A DNA stretch of 64,000 bases, from contig JANBVL010000001.1 in assembly GCA_024238995.1 (NCBI GenBank), forward strand, positions 74,059 through 138,058, in the 5' to 3' direction. Below, in pieces: positions 1 through 50,944 of this stretch. The DNA is from Patescibacteria group bacterium (GTDB lineage: Bacteria; Patescibacteriota; Minisyncoccia; Minisyncoccales; JANBVM01). The notes under the pieces are model-generated. The model saw only the letters and a program-made list of their open reading frames with translations. It was not told where the DNA came from and made no database searches. The first letter of the stretch is position 1, and each line of letters opens with the position of its first letter. A program made the position numbers and the translations under genes.

Positions 1-380
1 GCAGTACCAGCGTTTTTTGCTTTTACTGTTACCGTAAATAATGTTTTATTCTCTGTCGTGCATGTTGGAATTCCAAGAGAAAAATAAAGATTGCTGCAAG
101 TTAATTTATTATCGGGTGAAGCCATTAAATCACTATTAGGAGAAACACTTTGACAGGAAAGCTTATCTAATAATAATGTTCCTTCAACCATACAAACTTT
201 TTGTCCAGCAGGATTAACCTTTACAGATATATTAAACGTGTCCCCTACTTCTTTGCTTTGACTTGTCGGTGAAACATAAATTGAAGGATTTGCCGCTTCC
301 ACTGAATTAGTAAAACCAAATCCAGCAATTAAAATTCCGACACATCCTAAAGTTAAAATTGTAATTTTATTTTTATTCAT
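1..380 (-). CDS. secreted cohesin-like protein, N-terminal fragment (gene runs off the left window edge)
   Basis: Not in ORF track because there is no stop in the window. Minus-strand ATG at 378-380. My translation is MNKNKITILTLGCVGILIAGFGFTNSVEAANPSIYVSPTSQSKEVGDTFNISVKVNPAGQKV... This gives a signal peptide followed by the same Y-x-SP...VG-x-TF-x-SV-x-VN opening as the paralogs at 31.5-39.6 kb. Confidence 0.45.
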   Translation of the reverse strand, partial: MNKNKITILTLGCVGILIAGFGFTNSVEAANPSIYVSPTSQSKEVGDTFNISVKVNPAGQKVCMVEGTLLLDKLSCQSVSPNSDLMASPDNKLTCSNLYFSLGIPTCTTENKTLFTVTVKAKNAGT

Positions 381-385
381 ATATT

Positions 386-997
386 TTATATCGTGCTCCA
401 ATTTAACATTAAAAGCGCAAAATCATATTTATCTACTTTATTATCACTATTTAAGTCTGAATTATTTGCTCCGATTTTTCCCCAGGCAGCCATAATTAAA
501 GCAAAGTCATATTTATCTACTTCATTGTCTTTATTAACATCTCCAGCTTTATAAGTTGGTGGAGGCGTTGCTCCTCCGCCGCCGCCTCCTCCTCCACCAC
601 CACCTCCAGCAGAAGGAGTTGGAGTTTCCTCTGAAGATGAAGTAGTAATGGCCAAATCAAAGTTAACAGTAGGGATTGTATCAATATTAACAGCCGAAAG
701 CTGATTATTGTCATCAATAATTCCATTAACTTTGAACATTATAGTTTTACCTTCATTAGCTTTACCATCAGGAATTTCAATAAAATATATGCCTTCTCTT
801 ATCATAGTGGCAATAGCAACCTCCACATTGTCTATTTCTGCTGAAATTTCTGTATTAAGAGAAGCCGATTGTCCATCTATAATAACACTGCCATATACCA
901 ATAAAGGTATTGACGGTAGTGATGATATAGCCAAAAGCGTCGTAGGACAAACTAATGTAAAAATCACCAAAAATAATTGTAATTTATTAATTTTCAT
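386..997 (-). CDS. secreted dockerin-domain protein (signal peptide, small beta domain, S/T/P plus 12xGly linker, C-terminal dockerin)
   Basis: Hydrophobic N-terminus LFLVIFTLVCPTTLLA. The C-terminus carries two EF-hand-like dockerin repeats, GDVNKDNEVDKYDFALIMAAWG and DLNSDNKVDKYDFALLMLNW. No catalytic domain is recognisable. Confidence 0.75.
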   Translation of the reverse strand: MKINKLQLFLVIFTLVCPTTLLAISSLPSIPLLVYGSVIIDGQSASLNTEISAEIDNVEVAIATMIREGIYFIEIPDGKANEGKTIMFKVNGIIDDNNQLSAVNIDTIPTVNFDLAITTSSSEETPTPSAGGGGGGGGGGGGATPPPTYKAGDVNKDNEVDKYDFALIMAAWGKIGANNSDLNSDNKVDKYDFALLMLNWSTI

Positions 998-1030
998 AAT
1001 TATTTCTTTTCTCTCTTGTACAATACCTCG

Positions 1031-4000
1031 TTAAGGCACTATATTGCCTATTGCGTTAGCATAAAGCCAATAACCAGAACCTGGGTTCATATTATTGTCT
1101 ATACCTGAGACTGGATGGGCTACTGTAGAATAATTCCCATCATAACCATATACTGTTATATAACTTATTCCTGAAAGATAGGTTGAACTCTTTACTGAAT
1201 CTACTGACTTAAATCCTATTAAATTCCATCCTGAAATTACAGGATAAGTAGGTAGGGTTTCTTCTGGTCCTGGCATTTCCACACCATTAACAGTTAAAAT
1301 ATCATCATCATCTTTCATAAATATCCAATAACCTTTTCCATCTTCCATTGTGATTAAATCGCCACCGATACCAGGAATATAACTTAACCAATCTTCAATT
1401 GAAGGATCATAATATTTCACTGTATCTATGTTAGTGCTTATATCAGCTAAAACATCTTCAATAACAGAGCTCTCTGGTATCAACGGCAATGAAATTAAGT
1501 TCCAACCAGCAGATAAAGGAATATTATAAGTAGTTACTGGATCAGGTGTCATATCCATCATAACCTCTGTAAGGCTTACATTAATCGTTCCTTGAATTAA
1601 TCCATTGTTTGAATTATAAGAAGCAGTTACGATAGTCTGTCCTGCTTCATTTGAAGTCAATACTGCCGTAGCTCTTCCATTTATATCTGAAAGCGTAATA
1701 TTAGATAAAGTTCCAATTATAGCAGCAAAATTAACTACAGCACCTTCTACTGGAATACCATTATCTAATACTTGAGCTATTATCAATGCTTGGCTTGTGC
1801 CGTCAGCAGGTAAACTTGCTTTATTTGATGATACCGTAATGCTTGCTATAGTTGGATTTACTATAAAACTCCATATTTTTGTGGTCGAATTGCCAGCATT
1901 ATCAGCAACAGTCACAGTTGCTTCGTATGTGTTGGGATTTAATGGAATTTGAGGTGTATATGTTACGCTGGCAGTGCTTTTAGTAGCATAATCATCAGCG
2001 TATTCGTCACCGCTAAAAGTTAAACCCACACTGTTAATATTTACTCCTGATCCGTTTTCGTTAAATTGTGCACTAATTTCCGGCGTTGCGTCTGAAGTAG
2101 TATCGTGAAGTTCAGGAGTTAAATTAGTAATTTCCGGCGCGGTTGAATCAACTACAAATTCTGTAACACTTAATTCCGTACTTGCGTTTCCGGCGGAATC
2201 AGTAACTGTAATTGTGCAATCGCTATATGTGCCGTCCTCTAATTCGTTGAAAGTGATTGCATTCTCGCCTATAATTGCGCTAGCAGTCGCACTTAAACAA
2301 CTTCCTCCGTAAGTTATTGCTCCTGTTTCATCCGAACTAAATGTATAATCAGGCGTTGAGTCGTTTGTTAGGGTTGATACTGGAGTTACTTCTTGTAATT
2401 CTGGCGCGGTTGCATCTAGTTTTGCTAAATTTGTAGCGATCTTTACTGTTTCAGTATTACCAGCCGCATCAGCAGTAAAATATTTAATGCTATATTCTCC
2501 ATCTAAACTAATATCTATAATTGTTCCTTGCGCTGAATCTGTAGTCGGATTATTACCATCAGTTGTGTAATAAGTTTTTATCGGAGATAACTCATCGTTT
2601 GTTACGGTTAAAATAATGTCAAATGTGGCTGTCTGCCATTCTAAAGGAGTATTATCAGAAGTTGAAGGAGTTGTTTTGTCTAACAATACTGTCACAGAAT
2701 TTATTTCTTCGTTGTTCCCAGCATTATCTGTAGAATAATATCTGACATAATTAGTGCCTTCGGTGGTAACTAAAACTTCTGTTCCTGCTGTGTTCGGCGT
2801 ACAAGCGTTCGCCTGATCAACACAGTAATAGACTGTAGCCACGCCGCTAGTATCGTCATTAGCAGTTAAAGTAAATATCACATTCGTATTCTGCCAATCT
2901 GTCGAAGCATCATCAGTGGTCGCTGGAGCAGTTTTATCTAACTGTAGAGTATCAGATGCTGTTTTAATCTCCTCTAAATTGCCGGCGTTATCTTCACCTC
3001 TGTATTTAATTGCATACTTTCCATCGGTTGAGACAGTGAATTGCCAATTACTATCTTCGTCAACAAAAGATGAGGCGGTTGTTGGGTTTGTGGTATCAAT
3101 TGTGTAATAAACTTTTAAGCAACCTGAATTACCGCCTGCTGTATCATCACAACTCAAAGTTACAGTGACATCAACTGCTTGCCAACTAGCCGGTACATTG
3201 TCTATTGTTGCCGGCGCTTTTTTATCTATTTTAACTGTTCTTGAAACTGTTTCCTGAACATTTCCAGCATTATCTGTAGAAGCATATCTAAGATAAGTTA
3301 TGCCTTCGTCACTAATTATAACGGGATTAACATAATCAGTTGCGGGATCGCAATTATTATTCGTATCAGTGCAATATTTGGTTGTTGTTACTCCTGACAT
3401 TGCGTCAGTTGGAGTTAAGGTAATAGTTTGATCTTCACTCTGCCAAATATTATCTTTAGCAACGTAATTATCTGATGTTGTTGGCACAATTGTATCTTTA
3501 ACCACTGTATCAGTAACAGCATCGCCTTGATTGTCAACTTGGTCGGTTAAATAAACAGTTAAAGTTAATGTGCCGTCATTTAAACCAGTAACATTAATAT
3601 TTATAATTTGTTGATTAGTAGCTGTAATTGTTCCAGTGCTTGTTATAGTCGTGCCTCCTACCGAACTCTCTATTGAATAATTATAGCTTGCATTTTCTTC
3701 AGCGCCAGTAAAAATAAAGGAAAGTGCGGTTTGGTTGCTGTTGTTAATGTAAGATTGGTCAATGGCAACAGTATATCCCGTTGGCGCGACTCCATCGGTA
3801 ATATCCAAATTTGTTGATCCAACGGCAGAAACAACACCTTTGGTGAAATCGTACATTTTGAAACTTATAATGTAATTTGCTTGTTTGCCAATTTTGGCAT
3901 TAAAAGTTGTTGATAAACCATTAGCGCTTTCATAATCGGATTCATTAACGCCGATTAGAAATCCACCTTCTGGTCCCCAAGCTAAAACTAAATCACCTGC

Positions 4001-7000
4001 GCCAGCACTTACATAACTACGCTCTGTTGCATCAGTTACCTCTGCCGGAATATTATCACCTGAAAAAATTATTTCATTAACGGCTAATCCTGGAATTACT
4101 CCATAAAATCTTACTAAATTATCTTTTTCCGTATCCTTTACATTTCCTTGCGTTGTCACAGTTAATGAAAATTCTGCATTCTGTTTGGCAGTAGCGCCCT
4201 CAGAAGTCATTTGAAGGTTTGTGGCGTCATCAAGAATTGTTAACTGCATTTTTTCGTTGTCACCGTTTATTTTCTTTTTATCGTCAATATCATAAAACAC
4301 AAATTTAATATCATAGACGCCAACTTCGGAAATTTTGGCCTTAAAAGTTGTGGTTAAACCAACATCACTTTCATAGGCAGTTTCAGCGTCACCGATTAGA
4401 AATCCACCTTCTGGTCCCCAAGCTAAAACTAAATCATCTGCGCCAGCGCTTACATAACTACGCTCTGTTGCATCAGTTACCTCTGCCGGAATATTATCAC
4501 CCAAAAAAGTTATTTGACCAATGTCTAATCCCGGAATCACGCCATAAAATCTTACTAAATGATCATTTTGGCTGTCGCGAACATTGCCTTTGGAATTTAT
4601 TTCAACGATGAACTCCAAATCCTGCTTTCGGCTAACATCACTGGCTGTCATATGAATTAAAGTCGGAAACACAACATTGACTTTTCTGGTTACTTCTGTT
4701 GCATTATTGCCAGCTGAATCTTTAATATTATAAGTTATGGTATAAGTACCCACCATACTTGTGTCTACTGGATTGACTATAATAATGTTTGCTGTGATGT
4801 TTCCATCTGTATTATCTTCTGCTGTTGCTCCTGCGTCTGTATAAGTCTCCCCTGTTTCAATTTCCACTGAAATATTTCCTGATAATGTTATCACTGGCGC
4901 GATATTATCAATAATAAATGTATTATTAGTTGCCGTTTCGTTTGGATTACCCGCTATATCTGTACCTAAAATCATTACTGTCGCATTTCCGTCGCTTCCG
5001 GCTGGAACATCATATTGGTGAGTCCATACCATTCCACTACCAGACATTGCTGTCTCGATTAAATCTGTATCAGTTGTATCAATAGCGATTGTCGGCGCAC
5101 TAACCATTGGTTCGTTAAAAGTTGCTGTAATTTCTATGGTGTCATCATCTCTTACGGGCCTATTAGGATTATAAGTTAACGCAACCGTTGGTGCGATATT
5201 GTCAATTATATAAGAAGTTTTACCAGTGGCTGTATCATTTGGATTACCAGCCACATCAATAGCAGTGATAGAAATATCAACATCAACATCATTACTAGAT
5301 GGGACATCCCAAGTATATGTCCATACTAAATTATTTGTCTCTGTCATAGCGGCACCTGTCACAATACTGCCAATAGTAATGGCTGGCATTGGGGTTTCAT
5401 CAATATTATTTGCTTCAGTAAAGGTAGCCGTAATTCTCACTATATTAGCATCTCTAACGATGTTGTCAGGGTGGTCATCTGATAAAATGACGGTTGGATT
5501 TTTAGTGTCAATATCAAAAGCGTTTGATAAATTGCCATCCACCTGTATATTTCCCGCTACATCTGTTGCTCCGCTTACGCTTACATTAATATAGTTCATT
5601 TCTACGCCTGCATCAGCCATATTATAAGTAGCTGTATAAGTCTTATTTGAGTTTGACCATAAGTTACTTACTAATGTTAAAGTAGATTCAATTATTGGAT
5701 CAAAAACAATTATTGGAACTGAATCTGAATTCATTGTTTCGTTGTAACCAATAGCAACTGTGAATACTGTAGATATTGTAGTGTCATCAGTAATTAAATT
5801 TATGCTTGGAGTTATTGTAGTTACTATTGGATCAACTGTATCAACCTTAAAATTTCCTGCCTCATTATCAACAACCATTACATTGCCTGCAACATCTTTT
5901 GCGCCTGTTACAGAAATTGTCACAGTTTCTTCTTTATTGTTATCCGAAAGAGTAAAAGTCTCTATCCATGTAGTTCCCGATGGCCAAACACCGTCGTTTT
6001 TAGTTGTTATAGTTTCTGTTATTCCTGTAAATCCAAGAGTTGGAGTTACTGCATCCATTATTTCGCTAAATAAAACGGTTATGACCACATCTCCTGCTTT
6101 GGCAGGATTAGGATTCGCTATTGCACTGACAATAATTGGATTTAATGCATCAATATCAAAAGCGTTTGATAAATTGCCATCCACCTGTATATTTCCCGCC
6201 ACATCTGTTGCTCCACTAACAGAAATATCTACATCAACAACTTCTATACTTGCGTCAGTTACATCATAAGTAAATTCATAAATATTTGAATTTAACCAGC
6301 TTCCACCGTTATTAAATGATAAGGTAGATGAAACTTCTGGAGTAAAAGTAATTATTGGAACTGAAGTTTGATCCATTGCCTCGTTGTAATTAATTGTAAC
6401 TGTAAATGTGCCGAAACCTGCATCAACATCTGTGATTTGAGTTAAATTTGGAGTTATTAAAGATGTTTCTGGCTTTATACTGTCAATCCTAAAATCTACG
6501 TCACTTTCATCGCTCGCTGTATTACCTGCTAAATCCGCGACCACAATTTTTACTTTGACTGTTTCTGAATTAATAGCAGGCACTGTCCAAGAATATGGAC
6601 TGGTGTTTGCCAAACCTTCCTCAATAGTATTCCAAGTAGCTCCGTTATCAGTAGTGTAATGTAAGCTAATTGGATTATCTTCCAAGTTTGTATCATTAAT
6701 TTTTGTAGCGTCCCATGTAATATCTTTAGAAACTGCTCCTGCCCAAAATTCTCCCCCAATAGGCGAAGTAATAGCGCTAGCATCTACGGTCGGATCAATA
6801 TTATCAATTGTAAAAACTCCTGAGACATTATAAACATCTGAATCAAAAGTATCTCTTACTTTAATGTAAGCATTGCCATCTGCTACTTCTGTAGTGTCCC
6901 AAGGATATAAATAATTGCTACAAGGCACACTGTCAGCAAGTCTGTCAGAAACATTTCCAAAATTGTCAGTAGAATAATAAATATTAACTGTATCCCCTCC

Positions 7001-7198
7001 TTCACAGTTAGCGGTCCAAGTTATATTCTGTGTTTCGTTCCAATATTCCCCATTAATCGGAGAAGTAACAGTAATGCCTGTTACGGCCAAGGCATTAGAA
7101 ATAAAAAAACCGCTAACGATTAACATTGCGGCTAAAATAATAAAAGACCCCTGTTTAAGAATCTTTGGTTTGTTATTAATAAATATATTATTGGTCAT
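1031..7198 (-). CDS. giant 2055-aa multi-Ig-domain cell-surface protein (adhesin-like)
   Basis: Uninterrupted 6.2-kb ORF with an N-terminal signal/anchor GSFIILAAMLIVSGFFISNALA. It contains many Ig-like modules with recurrent D-x-AGN motifs. One is DUF5011/HYR-like (ETYTDAGATAEDNTDGNIT...GTYTITYNIKDSAGN) and one is Big_1-like (ITVSSNKASLPADGTSQALIIAQVLDNGIPVEG). The C-terminal domain reads GWNLISLP...GYWI...GWNLIGF...GYWLY. Confidence 0.85.
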   Translation of the reverse strand: MTNNIFINNKPKILKQGSFIILAAMLIVSGFFISNALAVTGITVTSPINGEYWNETQNITWTANCEGGDTVNIYYSTDNFGNVSDRLADSVPCSNYLYPWDTTEVADGNAYIKVRDTFDSDVYNVSGVFTIDNIDPTVDASAITSPIGGEFWAGAVSKDITWDATKINDTNLEDNPISLHYTTDNGATWNTIEEGLANTSPYSWTVPAINSETVKVKIVVADLAGNTASDESDVDFRIDSIKPETSLITPNLTQITDVDAGFGTFTVTINYNEAMDQTSVPIITFTPEVSSTLSFNNGGSWLNSNIYEFTYDVTDASIEVVDVDISVSGATDVAGNIQVDGNLSNAFDIDALNPIIVSAIANPNPAKAGDVVITVLFSEIMDAVTPTLGFTGITETITTKNDGVWPSGTTWIETFTLSDNNKEETVTISVTGAKDVAGNVMVVDNEAGNFKVDTVDPIVTTITPSINLITDDTTISTVFTVAIGYNETMNSDSVPIIVFDPIIESTLTLVSNLWSNSNKTYTATYNMADAGVEMNYINVSVSGATDVAGNIQVDGNLSNAFDIDTKNPTVILSDDHPDNIVRDANIVRITATFTEANNIDETPMPAITIGSIVTGAAMTETNNLVWTYTWDVPSSNDVDVDISITAIDVAGNPNDTATGKTSYIIDNIAPTVALTYNPNRPVRDDDTIEITATFNEPMVSAPTIAIDTTDTDLIETAMSGSGMVWTHQYDVPAGSDGNATVMILGTDIAGNPNETATNNTFIIDNIAPVITLSGNISVEIETGETYTDAGATAEDNTDGNITANIIIVNPVDTSMVGTYTITYNIKDSAGNNATEVTRKVNVVFPTLIHMTASDVSRKQDLEFIVEINSKGNVRDSQNDHLVRFYGVIPGLDIGQITFLGDNIPAEVTDATERSYVSAGADDLVLAWGPEGGFLIGDAETAYESDVGLTTTFKAKISEVGVYDIKFVFYDIDDKKKINGDNEKMQLTILDDATNLQMTSEGATAKQNAEFSLTVTTQGNVKDTEKDNLVRFYGVIPGLAVNEIIFSGDNIPAEVTDATERSYVSAGAGDLVLAWGPEGGFLIGVNESDYESANGLSTTFNAKIGKQANYIISFKMYDFTKGVVSAVGSTNLDITDGVAPTGYTVAIDQSYINNSNQTALSFIFTGAEENASYNYSIESSVGGTTITSTGTITATNQQIININVTGLNDGTLTLTVYLTDQVDNQGDAVTDTVVKDTIVPTTSDNYVAKDNIWQSEDQTITLTPTDAMSGVTTTKYCTDTNNNCDPATDYVNPVIISDEGITYLRYASTDNAGNVQETVSRTVKIDKKAPATIDNVPASWQAVDVTVTLSCDDTAGGNSGCLKVYYTIDTTNPTTASSFVDEDSNWQFTVSTDGKYAIKYRGEDNAGNLEEIKTASDTLQLDKTAPATTDDASTDWQNTNVIFTLTANDDTSGVATVYYCVDQANACTPNTAGTEVLVTTEGTNYVRYYSTDNAGNNEEINSVTVLLDKTTPSTSDNTPLEWQTATFDIILTVTNDELSPIKTYYTTDGNNPTTDSAQGTIIDISLDGEYSIKYFTADAAGNTETVKIATNLAKLDATAPELQEVTPVSTLTNDSTPDYTFSSDETGAITYGGSCLSATASAIIGENAITFNELEDGTYSDCTITVTDSAGNASTELSVTEFVVDSTAPEITNLTPELHDTTSDATPEISAQFNENGSGVNINSVGLTFSGDEYADDYATKSTASVTYTPQIPLNPNTYEATVTVADNAGNSTTKIWSFIVNPTIASITVSSNKASLPADGTSQALIIAQVLDNGIPVEGAVVNFAAIIGTLSNITLSDINGRATAVLTSNEAGQTIVTASYNSNNGLIQGTINVSLTEVMMDMTPDPVTTYNIPLSAGWNLISLPLIPESSVIEDVLADISTNIDTVKYYDPSIEDWLSYIPGIGGDLITMEDGKGYWIFMKDDDDILTVNGVEMPGPEETLPTYPVISGWNLIGFKSVDSVKSSTYLSGISYITVYGYDGNYSTVAHPVSGIDNNMNPGSGYWLYANAIGNIVP
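3951..4060. repeat. intragenic 110-bp near-identical repeat, copy 1 (partner 4392-4501)
   Basis: ccgattagaaatccaccttctggtccccaagctaaaactaaatca...ctctgccggaatattatcacc differs from copy 2 at 2 positions. The 441-bp offset equals a 147-aa tandem domain duplication (LVRFYGVIPGL...NIPAEVTDATERSYVSAGA.DLVLAWGPEGGFLIG occurs twice). Confidence 0.9.
4392..4501. repeat. intragenic 110-bp near-identical repeat, copy 2
   Basis: Direct comparison with 3951-4060 shows 2 mismatches, both transitions. Confidence 0.9.
5508..5572. repeat. intragenic 65-bp near-identical repeat, copy 1 (partner 6150-6214)
   Basis: tcaatatcaaaagcgtttgataaattgccatccacctgtatatttcccgc(t/c)acatctgttgctcc encodes SGATDVAGNIQVDGNLSNAFDID in both modules. 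The offset is 642 bp (214 aa). Confidence 0.9.
6150..6214. repeat. intragenic 65-bp near-identical repeat, copy 2
   Basis: Direct comparison with 5508-5572 shows 1 mismatch. Confidence 0.9.
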
Positions 7199-8352: not shown

Positions 8353-8377
8353 ATGTTTTACTTTATCATAAAAATTC

Positions 8378-8400
8378 TACTTCTCACAAGATAAATTGTA
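8378..8400. repeat. right arm of perfect 23-bp inverted repeat
   Basis: tacttctcacaagataaattgta is the reverse complement of 7591-7613. It is followed by cgac, so 8396-8404 ttgtacgac mirrors gtcgtacaa at 7517-7525. Confidence 0.95.
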
Positions 8401-8450
8401 CGACTTTCATTATCCTATCTTAAATATTGTTTCGGATAAAAATATGGGTT

Positions 8451-31513: not shown

Positions 31514-33247
31514 TTATTCTAATTCTTTTTCTATGTCTTCAATCTCCTTGCCAATGAAATCCTGAACAATTTTAAAGTCTTCTCTTAAATCATCGTAAAG
31601 TTTCCTTTCCTTTTTATTAAAACCAGACCGTGAATCAAACATCTCAATTTGACTCTCAACCTCCTTTTCTAGCAATTCAAATCCTCGAAGAACGCTCTTT
31701 CTTACTTCCCGAGTCTCTTTTCGCAACGTCTTTTTTGTCTGCCCGACATTATAAACAAGGTATCCTATAAAAAGAAATCCTAGGAACAAAGATAAAGATA
31801 AAAACAGAATTATGCTTTTAAAAGAAATTGTGAATATGCCTAAGGATATGCCGCTTAATGATACTTCAATTTTATGAACATCTGAATCATTGCTGAAAAC
31901 TCCTCTTTCATCCTGTACTTTAGCTGATAAGGAATAAATGCCTGACTGGACTAGCTCTTTTGTAGAAAAAGACCATTCTCCTAGTTGATTGCTTCTGCTG
32001 TACCATTCTTTCACATTTTGGCCATTTTTTTCCAAAGAAATTATGATCTTAACTTCAGGCAGCGCTTGGCCCTCAAGATAGAATATTTCTTCTCCAGCAA
32101 TATATTTTTCCGGCCAGACACTAATAACAGGAGTTTCAATAGGCTCTATGTCAACCAAAGTATTTGCTTGAGCGCTATTACCAGCCCTATCTACTGCTCT
32201 GACTATGATTCTGTGACTGCCTGGAACCTGAAAAGGCATAGAAAAAGGATTAATCTGGGCAAGCAGCACATTATAAAAGTCTCCTTCTCCAATTTTAAGC
32301 TCATAACGACTGATTCCTGAAACGTCATCATCTGTTTCAAAATACAAGTCTGGTTCAGGATTAGTAACATCTCCTTTATTATCAATTGTCACTTCAAATG
32401 GATAAGGCGACAGGTTGTCAACTTGAATCCTATAATGAACTGATTGAGTCCATTCTGTTTCATTTTCTAATCTAAGATGGAAATACCATACACCATCAGC
32501 AACTCCTTTATAGGTTTTAGATTGAATCAAACCTTCAGATTTAGTATCAGGTATGGTTTCTGAATTTTGATCTAACAAGAAGCTAACTCCAGTAGTGTCA
32601 GGTGTTAACACCCATTGGAAATAAGGGTCATTGTTGTTATACCATTCGTCTTGCTGGACATGGGTTGGACTAAAAATCTGCAAAGGAGCAGTTTCTAATT
32701 CAGATTGAGAAATAACTGTTGTTTGTTGAATAAAATACTTAGCTTCCTTAAGAAAGAGTAAAACATTTGTTCCTTCTCCATCATCAGCTAAAATCTTACC
32801 CTCACCAAAGGCAATATGAACTATTCCTTGTTTTTTCCCTTTAAAGTTTATGGTTATTATGTTTCCTATTTGCTGAAAACCAGGATGCGGCAACCCTCCA
32901 GCAAATGAAATTGTACCGTCAGAATTAGAAAAAGCTGGTTCTTCTGGCCAAAGAGCAAAAACAGAATCATCTTGGGAAATACTTAACACCTCTAGTGTAT
33001 CAGCAGGAAAATGAATAACAGCTTGAGCAGAATTAATAGGGATATCTCCTGTCTTGATTTTCACTTCCACAGAAAAACTATCTCCTAATTTAAAAGTTTC
33101 ACTGCCAGGAGAAAGAAAAAGTGAAGATCCTTTAACCTCAACAGCCTGGCTTATTCTTACACCTAAAACCAGCACCAGAACAACACCAAGAAGAAAAACA
33201 ACAATACTGACTATGCTTTTTTTACATTTGTTAATATTTTTAATCAT
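31514..33247 (-). CDS. cohesin-like single-pass membrane protein, paralog 6 (577 aa, extra Ig-like domain)
   Basis: Signal peptide, then SLFLSPGSETFKLGDSFSVEVKIKTGDIPINSAQAVIHFPADTLEVLSIS...GTISFAGGLP. The middle motif is DGVWYFHLR. There is a C-terminal TM (ILFLSLSLFLGFLFIGYLVY) and a charged tail. Confidence 0.75.
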   Translation of the reverse strand: MIKNINKCKKSIVSIVVFLLGVVLVLVLGVRISQAVEVKGSSLFLSPGSETFKLGDSFSVEVKIKTGDIPINSAQAVIHFPADTLEVLSISQDDSVFALWPEEPAFSNSDGTISFAGGLPHPGFQQIGNIITINFKGKKQGIVHIAFGEGKILADDGEGTNVLLFLKEAKYFIQQTTVISQSELETAPLQIFSPTHVQQDEWYNNNDPYFQWVLTPDTTGVSFLLDQNSETIPDTKSEGLIQSKTYKGVADGVWYFHLRLENETEWTQSVHYRIQVDNLSPYPFEVTIDNKGDVTNPEPDLYFETDDDVSGISRYELKIGEGDFYNVLLAQINPFSMPFQVPGSHRIIVRAVDRAGNSAQANTLVDIEPIETPVISVWPEKYIAGEEIFYLEGQALPEVKIIISLEKNGQNVKEWYSRSNQLGEWSFSTKELVQSGIYSLSAKVQDERGVFSNDSDVHKIEVSLSGISLGIFTISFKSIILFLSLSLFLGFLFIGYLVYNVGQTKKTLRKETREVRKSVLRGFELLEKEVESQIEMFDSRSGFNKKERKLYDDLREDFKIVQDFIGKEIEDIEKELE

Positions 33248-34552
33248 CTACATTTTATGTATTTTTCTTTTTAATTCTTCTTCTTTTTTCTTCCATTCAG
33301 TCTTAACTTTATCTAAAACATCCATCCTTTTATAAATGTATTTATGGCTTTTCCACCAGCGAGAGATATTTATGGCAATGAAGATTGATAAAGGAACAAG
33401 AAACAGAATCGCCTTCCACCAAGAAAGGAAAATAGTAAATATGCTTATCCCGCTTTTTGAAATGTAAAATAATCTTGTGCTGGGAATAATTTCTATTCTT
33501 TCTGAAGCATCCTGCCAATTCATAGCTTGGTCATAGGCTCTTACTACTATCTCATATTCTCCTAAGTCAAGATTATGCAGCCGGTAAGGACTATTCACTT
33601 CTACAAAGAAACTGGCTTCTTTGTTCTGAACAGTTTTTCTAAGATTAACTGCTTTCATTTCATAATGATCTAAGCCAGAAAGAGCATCAGTAGTAATAAA
33701 AGAAACAACTGGCGCTCTGGCAGCAGTAACTGGTGAGTTGGGGGTAGGTTCAAAGCTAAGTTTAAAAATGGCTGGTGGAGTTGTATCTATTTGAACAAGA
33801 TAATGAGTAACCCCTCCCCAACCTCCTCCTTTCTTGGCTTTTATGTGAAAATACCATATTCCATCTTCTAAATCGACGTAAGAAACTGACGCATGACTTC
33901 CCTCAGAAATATTATCTGGTACTGTATGAAAATTCTGGTCAATACTATAGCTGAAATCAGTTACTCCTGTTTCTTTTTGCCAAGCAAAAGCTGGATTATT
34001 GTTTTTGTACCATTTATTTTGGTCAGTGTAAGTAGAAGAAAATACTTTTGGTCCTGCTGGCGGAGGAATCTTTAAACTATAAAAGCCCTCTCCCATTGAA
34101 GTTAAAATATTAGTTCCTTTGCCATCGTCTAAAAGAACCTGAGAAGAATCTAAGAATTCAATAAAAGTTTCTCCTGGAGAAATGACTCTAAAAGTAATTG
34201 TAGAAACCAATCCCGAAGAAGTGTTGATTCCTGGAGATGGCACTCCTCCTTGAAAAGAAACAGTTCCTTCAATATTAGAATAAGTGGGTTGAGCAATCCA
34301 GACTGAAATGAATGATTTTCCAGCAACCGGGCTAGCTACCTGAAGTTTTCTAGGATCAAATTTCAAATCTACTTCTACGGCATTAATATCATTTCCTCCA
34401 GTATTAACAAAAATAGAAACATTAAAAGTGCTTCCAATGAAAAAAGTGCCAATATTAGGAGAGAAATACAAAGAAGCACCTTCAGCACTAACGACAAAAG
34501 GCACGAAAAAGGAAAATATTATAATAAATACTATATAAAATGATTTTTTCAT
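33248..34552 (-). CDS. cohesin-like single-pass membrane protein, paralog 5
   Basis: ASLYFSPNIGTFFIGSTFNVSIFVNTGGNDINAVEVDLKFDPRKLQV...GTVSFQGGVPSPGI, then DGIWYFHIKAKKGG, a C-terminal TM, and a Lys/Glu tail. Confidence 0.78.
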   Translation of the reverse strand: MKKSFYIVFIIIFSFFVPFVVSAEGASLYFSPNIGTFFIGSTFNVSIFVNTGGNDINAVEVDLKFDPRKLQVASPVAGKSFISVWIAQPTYSNIEGTVSFQGGVPSPGINTSSGLVSTITFRVISPGETFIEFLDSSQVLLDDGKGTNILTSMGEGFYSLKIPPPAGPKVFSSTYTDQNKWYKNNNPAFAWQKETGVTDFSYSIDQNFHTVPDNISEGSHASVSYVDLEDGIWYFHIKAKKGGGWGGVTHYLVQIDTTPPAIFKLSFEPTPNSPVTAARAPVVSFITTDALSGLDHYEMKAVNLRKTVQNKEASFFVEVNSPYRLHNLDLGEYEIVVRAYDQAMNWQDASERIEIIPSTRLFYISKSGISIFTIFLSWWKAILFLVPLSIFIAINISRWWKSHKYIYKRMDVLDKVKTEWKKKEEELKRKIHKM

Positions 34553-34588
34553 CGCTAATAATATAATTATAGCATACTCTAAAGTCTG

Positions 34589-36016
34589 CTAAATTCCTTT
34601 ATTTGATTCATTATTATTGAAAGGAGGTTTTTCACCTCTTAATTTTCTTGCTAATCTCTCTGCTTCTTCTACTTCTTTTCCTTCTTCAGGCTTTATTTTA
34701 CGGATTTTCTCCTCTAATTTCTTAACATCTTCAATCTCTTTTTCAGCTTGTTCTACTTCTTTGCGCAATCTTACTGACAAGTCTTTTCTTTGCTTACGCT
34801 GATATATTAAAATTCCCGAAACAATACCTATCAATAATATCATATAAGCTAACCACCAAGGAAAGAATAAATCCCTTATCCTTAATCCCTGACTATCGTA
34901 AAAAATAAAAGAATTAACAATATTTAAAGTTGTTTTAGCTTCAGTGGAATTTCCAGCTTTATCATATGTCATAACAATAATAGCGTATTTCCCTGCCCTC
35001 TCAAACGGAATTCTATAAGGTGAAACCACTTCTATGAAAAATGGATTGGCTTCACTTTTAGAATCAGAAAGATCAACTATGCTAACTTCATAATAATCAA
35101 TGCCAGAAAGCAAATCATCAGTAGAAAAATAAGCGAAGAATCTTGATCCAGTTACCCCGCCTATTGTTTCAATATCAATTTTAAATTCTTGAGGAGGGAT
35201 AGCATCAATATGCAAAGGATAATGAGTGGTTCCTCCAAAAACACCTCCTTTTTTTGCTTTTATATGAAAATACCAGATTCCATTTTTAACATCATTAAAA
35301 GTAACTGAATTCTCTTTACCTTCAGAAATATTGTCTGGGATTCCTTGAGGGTCTTGGTCTAAACTATAACTAAAATCAGTTACTCCTGGTTCTGTACTCC
35401 AAAAAAAACTTGGGTTATTGTTTTTATACCAAGTAGTAAGGCTGGGATGAGTGGGCGAAAAAAGCTTGGGTCCTTCAGGCGGAGAAAGTACTAAAGTATA
35501 GTTTCCAATAGCAGTGCTTTTAAGAATATTTGTGCCTTTTCCATCAGCCAGTAAAACCTTTGAAGAATCTGAAAATGAGATGGTAACTATTCCTGGAGCT
35601 TTGGCTCGAAAACTAATTGTTGACACCAAACCAGCTGAGGTTTTGATTCCAGGAGAAGGCACGCCTCCTTTAAAACTAATAATGCCTTGTTTATTTGAAT
35701 AAAACGGCTGGTCAGCCCAAACTGAAATAAAAGAAGAGCCAGCAGTTGGACTGGTAACTTGAAGAAGACCTGGTGAGAATTCTAAATCTACTTGAACAGC
35801 ATTAATACTGCTTCCTTCAGTATTTACAAAAACAGAAACATCAAAAGTAGTGCCAACAAAAAAAGTGCCCTGATAAGGAGAGAGATACAAAGAAGCACTT
35901 TCTCCTTCTGCTTTTGTTGGTTTGATTAAAAAAGCTCCTAATAGAAAGACCACGATAAACAAAGCTATAATCTTAATAAGCTTTCCTGTTTTTTCTAATA
36001 TAAAATTCTGCTTCAT
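34589..36016 (-). CDS. cohesin-like single-pass membrane protein, paralog 4
   Basis: ASLYLSPYQGTFFVGTTFDVSVFVNTEGSSINAVQVDLEFSPGLLQV..., then NGIWYFHIKAKKGG, TM AYMILLIGIVSGILIY, and a coiled-coil-like tail. Confidence 0.78.
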   Translation of the reverse strand: MKQNFILEKTGKLIKIIALFIVVFLLGAFLIKPTKAEGESASLYLSPYQGTFFVGTTFDVSVFVNTEGSSINAVQVDLEFSPGLLQVTSPTAGSSFISVWADQPFYSNKQGIISFKGGVPSPGIKTSAGLVSTISFRAKAPGIVTISFSDSSKVLLADGKGTNILKSTAIGNYTLVLSPPEGPKLFSPTHPSLTTWYKNNNPSFFWSTEPGVTDFSYSLDQDPQGIPDNISEGKENSVTFNDVKNGIWYFHIKAKKGGVFGGTTHYPLHIDAIPPQEFKIDIETIGGVTGSRFFAYFSTDDLLSGIDYYEVSIVDLSDSKSEANPFFIEVVSPYRIPFERAGKYAIIVMTYDKAGNSTEAKTTLNIVNSFIFYDSQGLRIRDLFFPWWLAYMILLIGIVSGILIYQRKQRKDLSVRLRKEVEQAEKEIEDVKKLEEKIRKIKPEEGKEVEEAERLARKLRGEKPPFNNNESNKGI

Positions 36017-37371
36017 TTTTCTTCTTGTGATGATTTTTCTTTTTCCTTTAATTTCTTTTCCAATTCTTGTTTTTTTTCTTCAAACTCTTCTGCAAATTCT
36101 TCTGTAGCTTCTTCTGTTTTTCTTTTTCTTTTTTCAATCTTTTTAATTTCAGACAAAGCTTCTTCAATTTCTTTTGTCGCTTTTTTAAATCCAAGCTTAC
36201 CTCTTCTCTTATAGGCCGCTACAACCAAATACCCAATCCCAAATCCAATTGCATAAATTAAACTCCGTGGAAGAAGAAAGTTTTTGAATTGAAGTCCTTT
36301 ACCTTCAATGTAAGAAAGAACTGGACTAATCAATCGAAAAGTAATTTGCTCCTGTCTTAAATTGCCTGATTTATCAAAAACCCTGACAATAATGTTATAT
36401 CTTCCAGATTTCTCATAAGGAATTTTATAAGGAGAAACAGCTTCAGTAAAAAAAGGCTGTGAAAGTTCAGGCTCTCTAAGATCTCTCAAACTAATTTCAT
36501 AATAGTCTATGCCTGAATAAATATCTTTGGTTTCAAAATAAATAAAGCGGGAATAAGTATCAATCTCTGGATTAAAACTTTGAGGCGGATTATTATCTAT
36601 CTTTATTATATAATGACTAGTCTTACCCCAAACTCCTGACTTTTTAGCCCTTAAGTGAAAATACCAGATGCCGTCTGCAACATCTGCATAAGATTTAAAG
36701 TTAATGTCTCCCTCAGATACTTCATCTGGCTCTTCTTGCGGATTTTGAGAAAGACTAAAGCTAAAATCAGTCATGCCATACTCCCTTATCCAATTAAAAG
36801 AAGGGTTATTATCCTGATACCAGACATCAAGATCTGGATGCGATGTCGATAAAAGCCTTGGTCCTTCTGAAGGTGGTACTGAAATCTGATAACTGCCTCC
36901 AATTAATATAGGAGAAATTGATGTGCCTTTCCCGTTATTAAGCAGAACTTTTGAAGAATCTAAAAATCCTATATTCGCTTTCCCAGGCATCTTGGCCCTG
37001 AAAGTAATGGTTGAAATCAATCCTGCAGAAGTAGTAATTCCTCCTGGCATTCCTCCTCTGAAAGAAATCTTTCCTGTGGCATTAGAATAAGTTGGAGGAG
37101 AAAGCCATTGAGAAACAAAAGATTCTCCACTGACTGGGCTAGTAACCTGAATTATGTCTGGAGGGAATGTTAAATCCACATCTACTGCATTAACCTCTTC
37201 GCCTTTAGTATTTATATATATAGATACATTAAAAGTGCTTCCCATGAAAAAAGTGCCGCTCTTGGGAGAAAGATATAAAGTGGCAGTGTCAGCTTTAACC
37301 ATTATGGGCACCATACCAATCATTGCTGATACAAAAGTAAATATTAATAAAGTAATAATGCTTTTTTTCAT
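36013..37371 (-). CDS. cohesin-like single-pass membrane protein, paralog 3
   Basis: ATLYLSPKSGTFFMGSTFNVSIYINTKGEEVNAVDVDLTFPPDIIQV..., then DGIWYFHLRAKKSG, a TM, and a Glu/Lys tail. Confidence 0.78.
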   Translation of the reverse strand: MKKSIITLLIFTFVSAMIGMVPIMVKADTATLYLSPKSGTFFMGSTFNVSIYINTKGEEVNAVDVDLTFPPDIIQVTSPVSGESFVSQWLSPPTYSNATGKISFRGGMPGGITTSAGLISTITFRAKMPGKANIGFLDSSKVLLNNGKGTSISPILIGGSYQISVPPSEGPRLLSTSHPDLDVWYQDNNPSFNWIREYGMTDFSFSLSQNPQEEPDEVSEGDINFKSYADVADGIWYFHLRAKKSGVWGKTSHYIIKIDNNPPQSFNPEIDTYSRFIYFETKDIYSGIDYYEISLRDLREPELSQPFFTEAVSPYKIPYEKSGRYNIIVRVFDKSGNLRQEQITFRLISPVLSYIEGKGLQFKNFLLPRSLIYAIGFGIGYLVVAAYKRRGKLGFKKATKEIEEALSEIKKIEKRKRKTEEATEEFAEEFEEKKQELEKKLKEKEKSSQEEK

Positions 37372-37386
37372 TCTTTAATTTGAGAG

Positions 37387-38634
37387 TTATGGATAACCTT
37401 TCTTAGTATATTTTTTCCGCAGCCACCATATTAAAACACCTGCTCCGCCTAATAAAACAAATGTTAAAAGCCAAACCAACCACCAGGAAAAAAGAGTTCC
37501 TCTGATTTCCAGACCACTGCCTTCAATATGAGTTATTAGAGGGGTCATCAACCTAAACCTGATTTCCTGTTCCCTTATATTCCCTGCTCTATCTACTGCT
37601 TTAATAATAACATTATATTTACCAGGTTTTTTGAAAGGAACTTTGTAAGGTGATGTTTCTTCTGTTAAAAATACCCGGGATGGTTCTGGCACACTTAAAT
37701 CAATCAAACCCACCTCATAATGGTCAATGCCTGAATAATCATCGCTAGTTTCAAAATAAATCAATGTCTGGTAGCTAACCAAACGATTATAGCTTTTAAC
37801 TTCAGGCTTAAATTCCTTTGGAGTATTAACATCTGCGCGAATCTGAACATGACTTGTTTGTCCCCAGACTCCTTGTTTTTTTTGCCTTAAATGAAAATAC
37901 CATATTCCATCAGAGACATCAGTAAAAGAAACCTGGCCTTCATTTCCTTCTGAAATGCCGTCTGGTCTTTTACTAGGATTTTGGTCGAAACTCCAAGAAA
38001 AATCAGTTACTCTGCTTTCTTTTTCCCAGGAAAAAGCTGGGCTTGAGTCTGAATACCAAACATTTGGATTAGGATGAGTTGGAGAAAAAACTTCAGGACC
38101 TTCTGGCGGAGGAATTAGAATCTGGTATTTTGCATTAATAGTGCTGGTTAAAATATCAGTTCCTTTGGCATCATTTAAAAGCACTTTTGATGATTCTGTA
38201 AATTCAATTCTAGCAGTTCCAGAAGTTACTGCTCTAAAAGTAATGGAAGAAACCAAACCAGCAGAAGTGCTGATGCCTCCTGGGATCCCTCCTTGAAAAC
38301 TAATAATTCCTCTTTCATTTGAGTAACTGGGAGGAGTAATCCATTCAGTAATCAAAGAAGTGCCAGCAGTAGGAGATGTAACTTGCAAGATGTTTGGAGG
38401 AAACTTCAATTCAGTTTGAACAACATTGATTTCATTACTTTCAGTATTAATAAAAATAGAAACACTAAAAGTACTGCCCACTAAAAAACTGCCTGACGAA
38501 GGAGAAAGATAAAGTTGAGCACTGTTTGATTGGACAGCTTGAGGAAATCCCAAAACCCAGGAGAGTAAAACACCAAACAACAATAATTTACTATTCACCT
38601 TCTTCATAATGGTTTCTTGAAGCAGACTCATCAT
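37387..38634 (-). CDS. cohesin-like single-pass membrane protein, paralog 2 (start probably MKKVNSK at 38607)
   Basis: AQLYLSPSSGSFLVGSTFSVSIFINTESNEINVVQTELKFPPNILQV..., then DGIWYFHLRQKKQG, and C-terminal TM WLLTFVLLGGAGVLIWW. Confidence 0.78.
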   Translation of the reverse strand: MMSLLQETIMKKVNSKLLLFGVLLSWVLGFPQAVQSNSAQLYLSPSSGSFLVGSTFSVSIFINTESNEINVVQTELKFPPNILQVTSPTAGTSLITEWITPPSYSNERGIISFQGGIPGGISTSAGLVSSITFRAVTSGTARIEFTESSKVLLNDAKGTDILTSTINAKYQILIPPPEGPEVFSPTHPNPNVWYSDSSPAFSWEKESRVTDFSWSFDQNPSKRPDGISEGNEGQVSFTDVSDGIWYFHLRQKKQGVWGQTSHVQIRADVNTPKEFKPEVKSYNRLVSYQTLIYFETSDDYSGIDHYEVGLIDLSVPEPSRVFLTEETSPYKVPFKKPGKYNVIIKAVDRAGNIREQEIRFRLMTPLITHIEGSGLEIRGTLFSWWLVWLLTFVLLGGAGVLIWWLRKKYTKKGYP

Positions 38635-39559
38635 GAAACAAGGCGGAATCTTTATGTTGTCTTTTCTTTTTTAACCATATCAGTCCTGCTCCAATGAGAA
38701 TGCTAAAAGTAATTATCCAATAAAACAAAGCTTTATTCTTTTTAATTACTGGAATATGTTCAGCAATATATTCATTACCTGCTTTGTCAATTGCTTTTAC
38801 CCTTATTGTATCATTTAATCCCTGGTCTTCCAGCAAATAGGGGCTGTCAGCTCTTTTCCATTCCCTTTCTCCTTCCTGAACTTCATAATGAGCAATACCT
38901 GTTTGTTTATCAGTAGTAGAAAATGTAATAAAATATTTACCTTCAAAAACACCAGGGCTCTGTTCAAGTATTATTAGGAATGATTCTGGAATAGTAACAT
39001 CACCTTTTAACAGCTCCTGCCACTCTTGTCTTGGAAACTCTGGTATTCCAGACAATATGCTTAAAAGCGCTCCATTTGTAATAAGAGAAGCTTTTGTGCC
39101 TAATCCATCATGAAGCAACACATAGGAATTTTCTGAGAATTCTATTTTGGTAGAAATTGGTTTATTTACTAATGGAGTTTGATATACCTGAAAGATCATT
39201 CTTCCAAGCAGATTACTTGTTCCAGGATCACCAGCTAACTCACCACAATATCCTCCTGGAATCCCGCCTGAAAAAGAAACTAAACCTGTTTCATTAGAAA
39301 ATTCTGGTTCCTTTGCCCAAAGAGAAAGCAATGAATTTCCTTGACTAAAATCTTTAATTTCTAAAACATTGCTGGCAAAACTTAATTCAACTTTCACTGT
39401 ATTAATACACTCTCCTTGTGTATCTATTTTTGCTTCTACTATAAAGGTGTCGCCTTGATAATATCCACTGCTGGACGGTTCTAGATATAAAATAGCTGCC
39501 CCACTTGATAAGGGGAAAAATAATAATAGTAGAAGTATGAATAATGAATTACGAGTCAT
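38591..39559 (-). CDS. cohesin-like single-pass membrane protein, paralog 1 (short, lacks the WYFH middle domain)
   Basis: AILYLEPSSSGYYQGDTFIVEAKIDTQGECINTVKVELSFASNVLEI...GLVSFSGGIPGG, with C-terminal TM FYWIITFSILIGAGLIW. Confidence 0.72.
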   Translation of the reverse strand: MTRNSLFILLLLLFFPLSSGAAILYLEPSSSGYYQGDTFIVEAKIDTQGECINTVKVELSFASNVLEIKDFSQGNSLLSLWAKEPEFSNETGLVSFSGGIPGGYCGELAGDPGTSNLLGRMIFQVYQTPLVNKPISTKIEFSENSYVLLHDGLGTKASLITNGALLSILSGIPEFPRQEWQELLKGDVTIPESFLIILEQSPGVFEGKYFITFSTTDKQTGIAHYEVQEGEREWKRADSPYLLEDQGLNDTIRVKAIDKAGNEYIAEHIPVIKKNKALFYWIITFSILIGAGLIWLKKKRQHKDSALFHDESASRNHYEEGE

Positions 39560-39591
39560 GAATTATGATAAATTTGTTTTTAATTCTTAAT

Positions 39592-40677
39592 TTATCCTGT
39601 CCACCAATACATAAGTATTGAGAAATCAATTAAATCAACAATCCCATCTTTATTTTGGTCAACACAAGCGTCATATTTCCCCCACCAATAAAGCAGAATA
39701 GAAAAATCAACAAGACTGGTCCTTCCGTTTTTATTAAAATCAGCTCTAGGGCAAAATGCTGGCACTATTGCTTCACCAATTACAAATTCTAAAGCATGGG
39801 AAAAACTACTCACAAGCCCCTCAGGAGACAAAGCACTGGCTTTGATATAGTAAGAATCCTCGTCTAGTAAAGAGGTGTTAAAAGAAAAAGTGTAATCTCC
39901 TCTTTGGTCAGCTTTAACTTTATTTATAATAGTCTCTTGGGTATCCAAAGATTTAAGATAAAGACTTATTTCACTTTGAGGAGCAGTCTGGCCTGAAACA
40001 TGCAATAACTCTCCTTTTTCAAGCTGGTTTTTCTCTATCTTAATAGTAGGAGGAATAAGAATATCACCAATAACTACTGTCATGCCAAGAGAAATAGTTA
40101 CTGTAAGAGAAAAAGTAATGGATTTTCTTCCTGCCTTATCTTCAGCCCAAAGTCCAAAAGTATAAGTACCGCCTGTAAGACTATTAATCTCTATTTTAAA
40201 TGCAGCTAATGAATCAGCTCGTGCAGTAGCAATTATGTTTCCATCTTTTAATGTGAAAATTGAGGCATATGGGTAAGCTTTTCCCTGAAGAATAACTTTG
40301 GTCACTGGCTCTCTTGGATAAGGAAGTCCAGGTGGAGTTGGCGGAGGAGGCTCTATTAAACAAGTAGAACTACAACCATCGCCAGAATTAGCATTACTGT
40401 CATCACATTCCTCTCCTTCTCCGTCTTGAATAATCCCATCACCACAACGAGGACCTAAACCACTGCAATCATTTTTACAGAAACCGTATTCTCCGTTATT
40501 CACTCCATCATCACATTCTTCTTCTATTTCAAGAATATCATTTCCACATACCCCTAATATCTTAGCACTAATAGAAACTCCGCTCTGGGCTTGAACGGAG
40601 TCAAAGCTAAAAGCCAATATTAAAAGTACAGAACTAAGTATTGAAATAATTAAAAATAAATTTAGCCATTTTTTCAT
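39592..40677 (-). CDS. secreted Cys-rich-repeat protein with C-terminal dockerin
   Basis: Signal peptide, then CGNDILEIEEECDDG...CGDGIIQDGEGEECDD...GDGCSSTC (DUF4215-type Cys-rich repeats). A Pro-rich linker and an Ig-like middle follow. Dockerin repeats are ADFNKNGRTSLVDFSILLYWWG and DQNKDGIVDLIDFSILMYWW. Confidence 0.78.
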   Translation of the reverse strand: MKKWLNLFLIISILSSVLLILAFSFDSVQAQSGVSISAKILGVCGNDILEIEEECDDGVNNGEYGFCKNDCSGLGPRCGDGIIQDGEGEECDDSNANSGDGCSSTCLIEPPPPTPPGLPYPREPVTKVILQGKAYPYASIFTLKDGNIIATARADSLAAFKIEINSLTGGTYTFGLWAEDKAGRKSITFSLTVTISLGMTVVIGDILIPPTIKIEKNQLEKGELLHVSGQTAPQSEISLYLKSLDTQETIINKVKADQRGDYTFSFNTSLLDEDSYYIKASALSPEGLVSSFSHALEFVIGEAIVPAFCPRADFNKNGRTSLVDFSILLYWWGKYDACVDQNKDGIVDLIDFSILMYWWTG

Positions 40678-50940: not shown

Positions 50941-50944
50941 TATT

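Follow-up and report, generated by a model that had tools for sequence, protein, structure and literature searches.

A three-gene cassette in Patescibacteria with a predicted cohesin-dockerin joint for the display of an immunoglobulin-repeat protein

Introduction

In Ruminococcus flavefaciens, the cell-anchored protein ScaE uses a single cohesin to hold the non-enzymatic binding protein CttA by its dockerin, an arrangement that serves attachment and not catalysis (PMC4266597). The present analysis concerns a 64,000-nucleotide stretch of DNA from a tiny-celled Patescibacteria group bacterium (contig JANBVL010000001.1; hereafter the window) and, at its left edge, a set of three genes encoding a giant protein of immunoglobulin (Ig)-like repeats, a small adaptor with a dockerin and a cohesin-like protein with a membrane anchor. 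ScaE-CttA is the closest analogue of this set, the likeness being a single cohesin with a C-terminal surface anchor in both. The anchoring system of Clostridium thermocellum is also similar in that a cell-bound cohesin (SdbA, OlpB, Orf2p) captures the C-terminal dockerin (type II, in CipA) of a large non-catalytic protein, and in that the dockerin has two F-hand repeats. Non-cellulosomal pairs, such as the GH84C/NagJ toxin-complex modules of C. perfringens and the Archaeoglobus fulgidus protein 2xdh, have in common with the window set that they have no link to cellulose.

Cohesin and dockerin are the hallmark modules of the cellulosome, and non-cellulosomal cohesins and dockerins are widespread. 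Patescibacteria (candidate phyla radiation, CPR) represent a large share of bacterial diversity, and for most of them a life attached to other cells is assumed, but the molecules that mediate this attachment are, to our knowledge, largely unknown. The three genes are best read as a non-cellulosomal split-anchor system for the display of a surface protein. In the arrangement favoured here (with a probability of roughly 0.6), the membrane-anchored cohesin would bind the dockerin of the adaptor, a second domain of the adaptor (N) would hold the C-terminal domain of the giant (T) and the Ig-repeat rod would project from the cell. A dockerin-domain protein has been placed among the essential envelope proteins of a cultured Saccharibacterium, the one genetically tractable relative (PMC10633639). 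In the literature searched on cohesins and dockerins in CPR, Patescibacteria, Parcubacteria and DPANN no account of the cassette was found, although one may still exist.

Gene order and gene products

The features of the three genes, all on the minus strand, are as follows (aa, amino acids; bp, base pairs; ORF, open reading frame).

1..380, minus strand: 5' part of the cohesin-anchor gene, aa 1-126 of 254 (126 codons visible), ATG at 380 (translation)
3-293, minus strand: most of the cohesin domain (translation)
294-380, minus strand: signal peptide of the cohesin-anchor protein (translation)
381-385, minus strand: 5-bp gap between adaptor and cohesin-anchor genes (ORF listing)
386..997, minus strand: adaptor gene, 203 aa, comprising signal peptide, N domain, 12-Gly linker and dockerin (ORF listing)
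389..547, minus strand: dockerin module, aa 151-203, with two F-hand calcium loops (PF00404)
572..607, minus strand: 12-glycine linker, aa 131-142 (sequence; the Gly run is kept across the adaptor family)
638..916, minus strand: N domain, aa 28-120, with the motif 'IPLLVYG', directly behind the signal peptide (beta-sandwich in the AlphaFold2, AF2, model)
998..1030, minus strand: 33-bp gap between giant and adaptor genes, the two genes being in the same reading frame
1031..7198, minus strand: giant cargo gene, 2055 aa (ORF listing; NCBI MCP6717999.1, 'DUF5011 domain-containing protein', Patescibacteria group bacterium)
1034..1549, minus strand: T domain, giant aa 1884-2055, with the twin motif 'GWNLIS.P ... 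G.GYW' (motifs and duplication)
7082..7198, minus strand: N-terminal hydrophobic segment of the giant, aa 1-39 (read from sequence)

An earlier note on this DNA had described a truncated cohesin-like gene and a dockerin gene preceding an Ig-repeat giant. The ORF listing agrees with it on the positions (1031-7198 for 2055 aa, 386-997 for 203 aa and 1-380 open at the left edge), on the common direction of the three genes and on the gaps of 33 and 5 bp; the order of reading was wrong, however, since the minus strand encodes all three and the giant is therefore transcribed first, followed by the dockerin protein and then the cohesin protein. No terminator-like site was found on the minus strand in the 33-bp gap between giant and adaptor. 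Promoter and terminator scans returned the same site counts as in shuffled sequence and therefore have no bearing on co-transcription.

The dockerin of the adaptor scored 32.7 bits against the PF00404 cut-off of 22.9 (E=8.8e-8, residues 151-197), so that the repeats pass the hidden Markov model (HMM) threshold against which the earlier note had proposed to test them. Both calcium loops, DVNKDNEVDKYD (aa 153-164, window 506-541) and DLNSDNKVDKYD (aa 181-192, window 422-457), are complete and follow the pattern D-x-N-x-D-x-x-V-D-x-x-D, with D/N ligands at loop positions 1, 3, 5, 9 and 12. In the AF2 model of the adaptor, where the predicted local distance difference test score (pLDDT) exceeds 87 in both domains (about 90), the loops are followed by helices at 162-170 and 190-198, and the modelled dockerin superposes on the type II dockerin 2y3n_B with a template modelling (TM) score of 0.81 and a root-mean-square deviation of 1.0 Å. 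The best match of the family profile among PDB sequences was the dockerin of C. perfringens GH84C (2jnk; 2jnk/2ozn) at E=4.4e-7. The adaptor family comprises 86 homologues, nearly all with PF00404. Pfam and NCBIfam scans of the adaptor found no enzyme domain, bearing out the earlier description of a dockerin protein without one, and the linker is exactly 12 glycines long, as had been counted; it coincides with what appears to be a break-point of recombination separating N from the dockerin. Some adaptors carry a Cys-rich insert, 'C.I.NG.G.QTW...W..C....SCN.GYH', which is unlike the insert found in the stalks of cohesin-anchor proteins.

The N domain has no Pfam or NCBIfam model. Its AF2 model is a confident beta-sandwich with weak Foldseek matches (E 6e-4 to 1e-2) to transthyretin-like and carboxypeptidase-regulatory-like sandwiches, among them the PapC C-terminal domain (3l48), carboxypeptidase M (1uwy) and teneurin. 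The name 'PGF-pre-PGF' attached to one cluster of N-domain proteins was discarded, as it belongs to another region of that protein.

The gene cut off at the left edge was completed by leftward extension, as the earlier note had suggested, from the source contig (ENA ERZ23499938 scaffold_308, here locus L001), which was found by exact look-up of the 203-aa protein. The full gene (L001:10618-11382) encodes 254 aa: behind the signal peptide comes a domain of about 125 aa containing four Cys, then an acidic stalk rich in Glu, Thr and Val, and lastly a C-terminal membrane anchor, the C-terminus reading FLAAIGNILSLGTNNAW, then a transmembrane helix, then a KSRRKKS tail. With the Pfam Cohesin model PF00963 the window fragment scored 20.6 bits (E=5.3e-4), the full protein 20.1 bits and the homologue P0001 20.5 bits, all below the cut-off of 24.1, and the family profile gave no matches among PDB sequences. 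P0001, which is 93% identical to the window protein, was modelled with AF2 from a 44-sequence alignment with a core pLDDT of 92-98; in a Foldseek search of the PDB the top 16 matches and 27 of the top 28 were cohesins (E 4.7e-8 to 1.3e-4; target-normalised TM score 0.60-0.69 for single-cohesin chains), including the non-cellulosomal cohesins 2xdh of A. fulgidus and 2w1n of C. perfringens. The one non-cohesin, at rank 17, was the CLIPPER adhesin domain 9ifr. The HMM of the 254-aa family also matched six paralogues elsewhere in the window (31514-39559) at E 1e-10 to 1e-17, three of which pass the Pfam Cohesin cut-off. Because of these fold matches and the HMM link to Pfam-passing paralogues, the product of the left-edge gene is taken to be a cohesin by predicted fold and by homology. 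The earlier assignment as cohesin-like stands to that extent, although the Pfam score of the protein stays below threshold.

A role as cell-surface anchor would fit the cohesin family, since its member P0042 carries an LPKTG sortase signal (matching PF00746) in place of the transmembrane tail. The window protein has no LPXTG, ending instead with 'LSLGTNNAW', a transmembrane helix and a basic tail. 'LSLGT' was considered as a variant sortase motif and rejected, as it is not kept across the family and the window ORFs that were scanned included no sortase. Many stalks of the family contain a Cys-rich insert, 'C.C..W..WQ...CG.G.C...Q...TR.R.C.P..C', that resembles a thrombospondin type 1-like repeat (alignments A1/A2).

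In the giant, all modules recognised with Pfam and NCBIfam are Ig-like or beta-sandwich domains (Big_7-like, Big_12, Bact_surface_Ig-like/DUF5011, four OmpL47-type barrels, CHB_HEX_C, Big_13, Big_5 and Big_1/Invasin_D3), in agreement with its earlier description as a 2055-aa Ig-repeat protein, and scans with Pfam, NCBIfam and family HMMs found no enzyme, cohesin, dockerin or C-terminal anchor. Residues 1-39 may form a signal peptide or anchor, judging from their hydrophobicity. The first 45 aa are 74% identical to those of the giant at locus L008, and the rest of the two proteins differs. The T domain occupies the last 172 residues and is a tandem duplication of a unit of about 75-95 aa (hhalign 99.1%, E=1e-18), with GWNLI(S/G) towards the beginning and G-x-G-Y-W towards the end of each unit. 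No match to T was found in Pfam, NCBIfam or PDB sequences; profile matches to the designer Kelch 'SAKe' proteins in the PDB were dismissed as a repeat artefact, consisting of a 23-residue motif repeated six times with each stretch at E of about 100. Among 1.84 billion representatives T was present in 32,760 clusters at E<=1e-3, nearly always at the extreme C-terminus. Comparisons with hhalign of T with N, T with cohesin and N with cohesin showed no relationship.

Conservation of the gene set

A scan of a genome collection with the adaptor alignment (dockerin pattern) returned 46 loci, nearly all from Patescibacteria (Nealson-, Staskawicz-, Gribaldo-, Jorgensen-, Wildermuth-, Wolfe- and Nomurabacteria, and Paceibacterota). 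In all 46, the gene directly after the dockerin belongs to the cohesin family (230-430 aa, E 1e-34 to 1e-64). The order of cargo, dockerin adaptor and cohesin anchor was read in eight loci with differing flanks (L001, L003, L004, L006, L007, L008, L009 and L010), and a T domain is present in seven of the eight cargoes (five of six in the first trio loci read), the cargo of L010 being a 236-aa protein without T. Within this three-gene form, every N-type adaptor with readable upstream sequence (14/14) is preceded by a T-type cargo. A two-gene form accounts for 11 of the 46 loci, where an Ig-repeat protein (840 to >1390 aa), with Ig-like modules in common with the window giant, carries a dockerin at its own C-terminus and the adaptor is missing. 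Such cargo-dockerin fusions, in the sense of a Rosetta stone, argue that the job of the adaptor is to connect the cargo to the cohesin. The idea of a modular apparatus put forward in the earlier note is strengthened by the retention of the trio in varied contexts, by the constant dockerin-cohesin adjacency and by the exchange of modules as matched pairs described below. At one locus (L011:182-5342) the succession of dockerin and cohesin occurs twice in tandem, and a T-type cargo separates the two pairs.

Pairing of the T and N domains

A metagenome scan with the T alignment yielded 80 loci, in 66 of which the gene next after the T gene encodes an N domain, placed directly behind a signal peptide. 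The pairing rises to 60/66 among loci with at least 900 bp of downstream sequence, has a median gap of 26 bp and is present in 45 of 54 clusters at 70% identity; in none of the 80 loci was an N gene found upstream of a T gene. Dockerin and cohesin are also present only in 4-5 low-GC (guanine-cytosine) loci. In high-GC loci, the C-terminus of the N-domain proteins is a transmembrane helix with a basic tail or a CFI-box-CTERM domain (NF041770), suggesting that outside Patescibacteria the N-domain proteins are themselves anchors. Read most simply, the N-domain protein would generally be the cell-bound partner of a T-domain cargo, and in Patescibacteria a dockerin-cohesin joint would have taken the place of the covalent connection of N to its membrane anchor. 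Two other architectures were also seen, namely a fusion of an N domain with a single T unit in a protein of 207 aa (L064:2923-3546) and a multicopper-oxidase-like protein of >1160 aa with at least three N domains split by Thr-Pro linkers (L074:4005-7495).

Co-variation and exchange of modules

Pairwise identities of five modules (T, N, dockerin, cohesin and anchor) were compared over eight loci by exact-permutation Mantel tests. Dockerin and cohesin, on different polypeptides, co-vary (r=0.86, p=3e-4), as do N and T (r=0.92, p=1.7e-4); dockerin and N, which belong to one polypeptide, do not (r=-0.08, p=0.56), nor does the cohesin with its own anchor (r=0.00, p=0.47). The loci fall into the following types, and the two partitions cut across each other.

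Dockerin/cohesin type A: window, L003, L004, L006, L007
Dockerin/cohesin type B: L008, L010
Dockerin/cohesin type C: L009
N/T type 1: window, L003, L009
N/T type 2: L004, L007, L008
N/T type 3: L006
N/T type 4: L010

Loop positions 10-11 distinguish the three dockerin types (KY; VL/IF; FD), and in cellulosomal dockerins these are the classical specificity positions. The plainest example of exchange is the pair L008 and L010, from two Ca. Nealsonbacteria genomes (CP179890.1 and CP179889.1): with GltX 98.5% identical and the cassette at the same locus, the dockerin, cohesin and anchor modules are 77-85% identical, while the cargoes (a T-type giant of 1681 aa in L008, a non-T protein of 236 aa in L010) and the N domains of the adaptors are unrelated. 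Judging from these sequences, the T and N block and the dockerin and cohesin block appear to be exchanged independently among related strains, each as a matched pair.

Proposed mechanism and alternatives

In the arrangement proposed here, all three products would be exported. The third gene would place a single cohesin on the outer face of the membrane, held by the C-terminal transmembrane helix behind a long acidic stalk, and the C-terminal dockerin of the adaptor would plug into it with calcium. The beta-sandwich of N would then hold the C-terminal twin 'GWNLIS' domain of the first gene product, whose 2055-aa rod of Ig-like domains would project outward, most plausibly as an adhesin or surface fibril. 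Two such joints, T with N and dockerin with cohesin, would make the apparatus modular, comprising a cargo and its socket and a plug and its socket. Physical binding of dockerin and cohesin is strongly indicated by the predicted folds, by their adjacency in 46/46 loci and by the co-variation of their types, and binding of N and T is moderately indicated by adjacency, by co-swapping and by the anchors present on N proteins. An adhesive function of the giant is weakly suggested by its domain content, and an adhesin with an epibiotic role is speculation.

Several points weigh against this arrangement. The cohesin family lies below the Pfam cut-off, with 7/44 members at E<0.01 and 0/44 reaching 24.1 bits, and its structural model is that of P0001 and not of the exact window protein. 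The fold matches of N are weak (E about 1e-3, TM score 0.26-0.32 on the query), and the word 'adhesin' derives solely from Ig-like domain content. The Mantel tests cover only eight loci, which are phylogenetically related. In addition, T and N, and likewise dockerin and cohesin, are each contiguous DNA, so recombination blocks with breaks in the poly-Gly and acidic linkers would give an identical pattern, and the shared inheritance need not come from selection acting on interfaces. The spacings are about 90 bp from N to dockerin, 114 bp from T to N and 92 bp from dockerin to cohesin; as these are comparable, the alternation of correlated and uncorrelated pairs does not follow from distance alone.

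Of the other explanations, the least improbable, though still unlikely, is that the cohesin-dockerin pair tethers the small adaptor only, the giant being merely co-transcribed, with T binding the envelope or another target alone and N having a separate ligand such as a glycan. A domain as widespread as T (32,760 clusters) could have a general function in envelope binding or sorting, carbohydrate binding or a spacer role is common among transthyretin-like sandwiches, 6 of the 66 T loci with enough downstream sequence have no N gene and the support for contact between N and T is indirect. However, the succession of T and N genes in 66/80 loci, at a median gap of 26 bp, holds across very different GC contents, and N and T types swap together (r=0.92) whereas N and dockerin of one protein do not. 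Moreover, adaptors that accompany a non-T cargo (L010, L055) also have another kind of N domain, and fusions of cargo and dockerin exist. Slightly more doubtful is a role of the N-domain protein as an assembly or export partner of T proteins (a chaperone, usher-like factor or polymerisation primer), which the cohesin-dockerin pair would merely localise at the membrane. The fold matches of N to the PapC usher C-terminal domain and to the SusC N-terminal extension domain point this way, some loci have two N genes in tandem and the natural fusion of N to a single T unit at L064 would fit head-to-tail assembly, but the matches are weak and generic, and no pilin-like or secretion genes were found flanking the trio. 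N proteins outside Patescibacteria also have long extracellular domain arrays and membrane anchors of their own, which looks structural and not catalytic.

A small cellulosome-like system organising polysaccharide-degrading enzymes is far less probable than either of these, despite the presence of cohesin and dockerin and of a DUF4015 glycoside-hydrolase-like gene at 46385-47668. None of the three proteins has a catalytic or carbohydrate-binding module, and it was on the absence of any such enzyme or module that the cellulosome reading was rejected; there is one cohesin per anchor and no multi-cohesin scaffoldin, the 64 kb contain only two dockerins, neither of them on an enzyme, and the DUF4015 protein has no dockerin.

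The split-anchor arrangement leads to a wider proposal, which is tentative and to which we would give somewhat less than even odds. T and N would be a previously undescribed pair coupling cargo to anchor across several phyla, the anchor having been split in Patescibacteria into an N-dockerin adaptor and a cohesin membrane stub, with cassettes exchanged between strains so that the cell surface would vary, for instance to change the range of hosts or to escape phages. The replacement of cargo at a fixed chromosomal site between near-identical strains indicates rapid diversification of the cell surface. The conserved operon further predicts binding partners, with the three natural dockerin/cohesin types predicted to be orthogonal, and short orthogonal cohesin-dockerin pairs could serve as protein-assembly parts. 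T (>32,000 clusters) and N may represent two new domain families without a database model whose genes are adjacent across phyla.

A second locus and neighbouring genes

The window contains a second set of dockerin and cohesin genes.

39592..40677, minus strand: second-locus dockerin protein, 361 aa, with Big_6, DUF4215 and a divergent dockerin (Pfam and family HMM)
31514..39559, minus strand: six tandem cohesin paralogues, each with signal peptide, cohesin, transmembrane helix and Lys/Glu-rich cytoplasmic tail

The dockerin of this locus scored 18.3 bits with Pfam Dockerin_1, below threshold, and E=1e-10 with the family dockerin HMM, two F-hand-like repeats being visible; the three cohesins that pass the Pfam cut-off did so at 28.0, 31.6 and 26.1 bits. 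The earlier proposal that the same logic occurs at two loci is thus upheld in so far as a dockerin is again followed by cohesins (31514-40677), but the dockerin is divergent, there are six cohesins, the types are others and a giant is lacking. Because dockerin and cohesin types co-vary strictly, pairing across the two loci, which the earlier note had raised, seems unlikely. Just upstream of the cluster, two secreted proteins without a Pfam match (41812-42429, 205 aa, and 42546-44354, 602 aa, both minus strand) have in common a C-terminal block of about 65 aa, 'AARYDNASTT.DVGGFEITDV...ITYTC'.

The window has a GC content of about 33% and contains a murD-ftsW-murG-gltX block. Its GltX and MurG share about 77% identity with their counterparts in two complete Ca. 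Nealsonbacteria genomes with the same gene context, and the organism is probably a relative of this group. Scans of the window for tRNA genes and Rfam families gave no matches. Genes of defence and mobile type lie on either side of the cassette: at 7637-10759 there are an HEPN/RiboL-PSP-like gene, a small gene overlapping it by 4 bp, DUF2806 and a nitroreductase, and past the left edge (L001:11518-14538) GmrSD_N and a tyrosine integrase. The corresponding chromosomal site in the Nealsonbacteria genomes holds methylase, Vsr and HATPase genes. Farther away, the region 48557-62121 (minus strand) is prophage-like, with a large serine recombinase (48557-50149), a terminase large subunit (54689-56233) and several ORFs without a Pfam match, and a pyruvoyl-dependent histidine decarboxylase (23721-24572, minus strand; PF02329, E=7e-43) adjoins a histidine kinase gene (22072-23721).

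Comparison with described systems

The two-gene variants, in which a cargo-dockerin protein is followed by a cohesin anchor, follow the same logic as CttA and ScaE, and cttA lies directly upstream of scaE in the R. flavefaciens sca cluster. The anchors differ, ScaE having an LPXTG sortase anchor and the window protein a transmembrane helix with a basic tail (LPKTG occurs in the homologue P0042 only). CttA has an X module and its own C-terminal dockerin, whereas no X module was recognised here and the dockerin is on a separate 203-aa adaptor, which brings with it a second, unannotated joint between N and T. The cargo also differs, being an Ig-repeat giant without carbohydrate-binding modules, as does the organism, a Patescibacterium without a cellulosome, and strict 1:1 operonic pairing with discrete, swappable types sets the present genes apart.

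The non-cellulosomal pairs are close at the level of the modules, since the dockerin best matches 2jnk/2ozn and the cohesin model matches 2w1n and 2xdh. Their modules, however, belong to secreted enzymes or to proteins whose role is not known, and adjacent 1:1 gene pairs do not encode them, while those described here are strictly operonic (46/46), with one partner membrane-anchored and with discrete types that co-vary. In C. thermocellum, the cohesins are anchored to the cell wall by surface-layer homology (SLH) domains and the captured protein is an enzyme-loaded, multi-cohesin scaffoldin, neither of which is present here. The cassette is best read as a variation on cohesin-dockerin surface anchoring, which was already known, and the widely distributed pair of T and N domains may be what is new.

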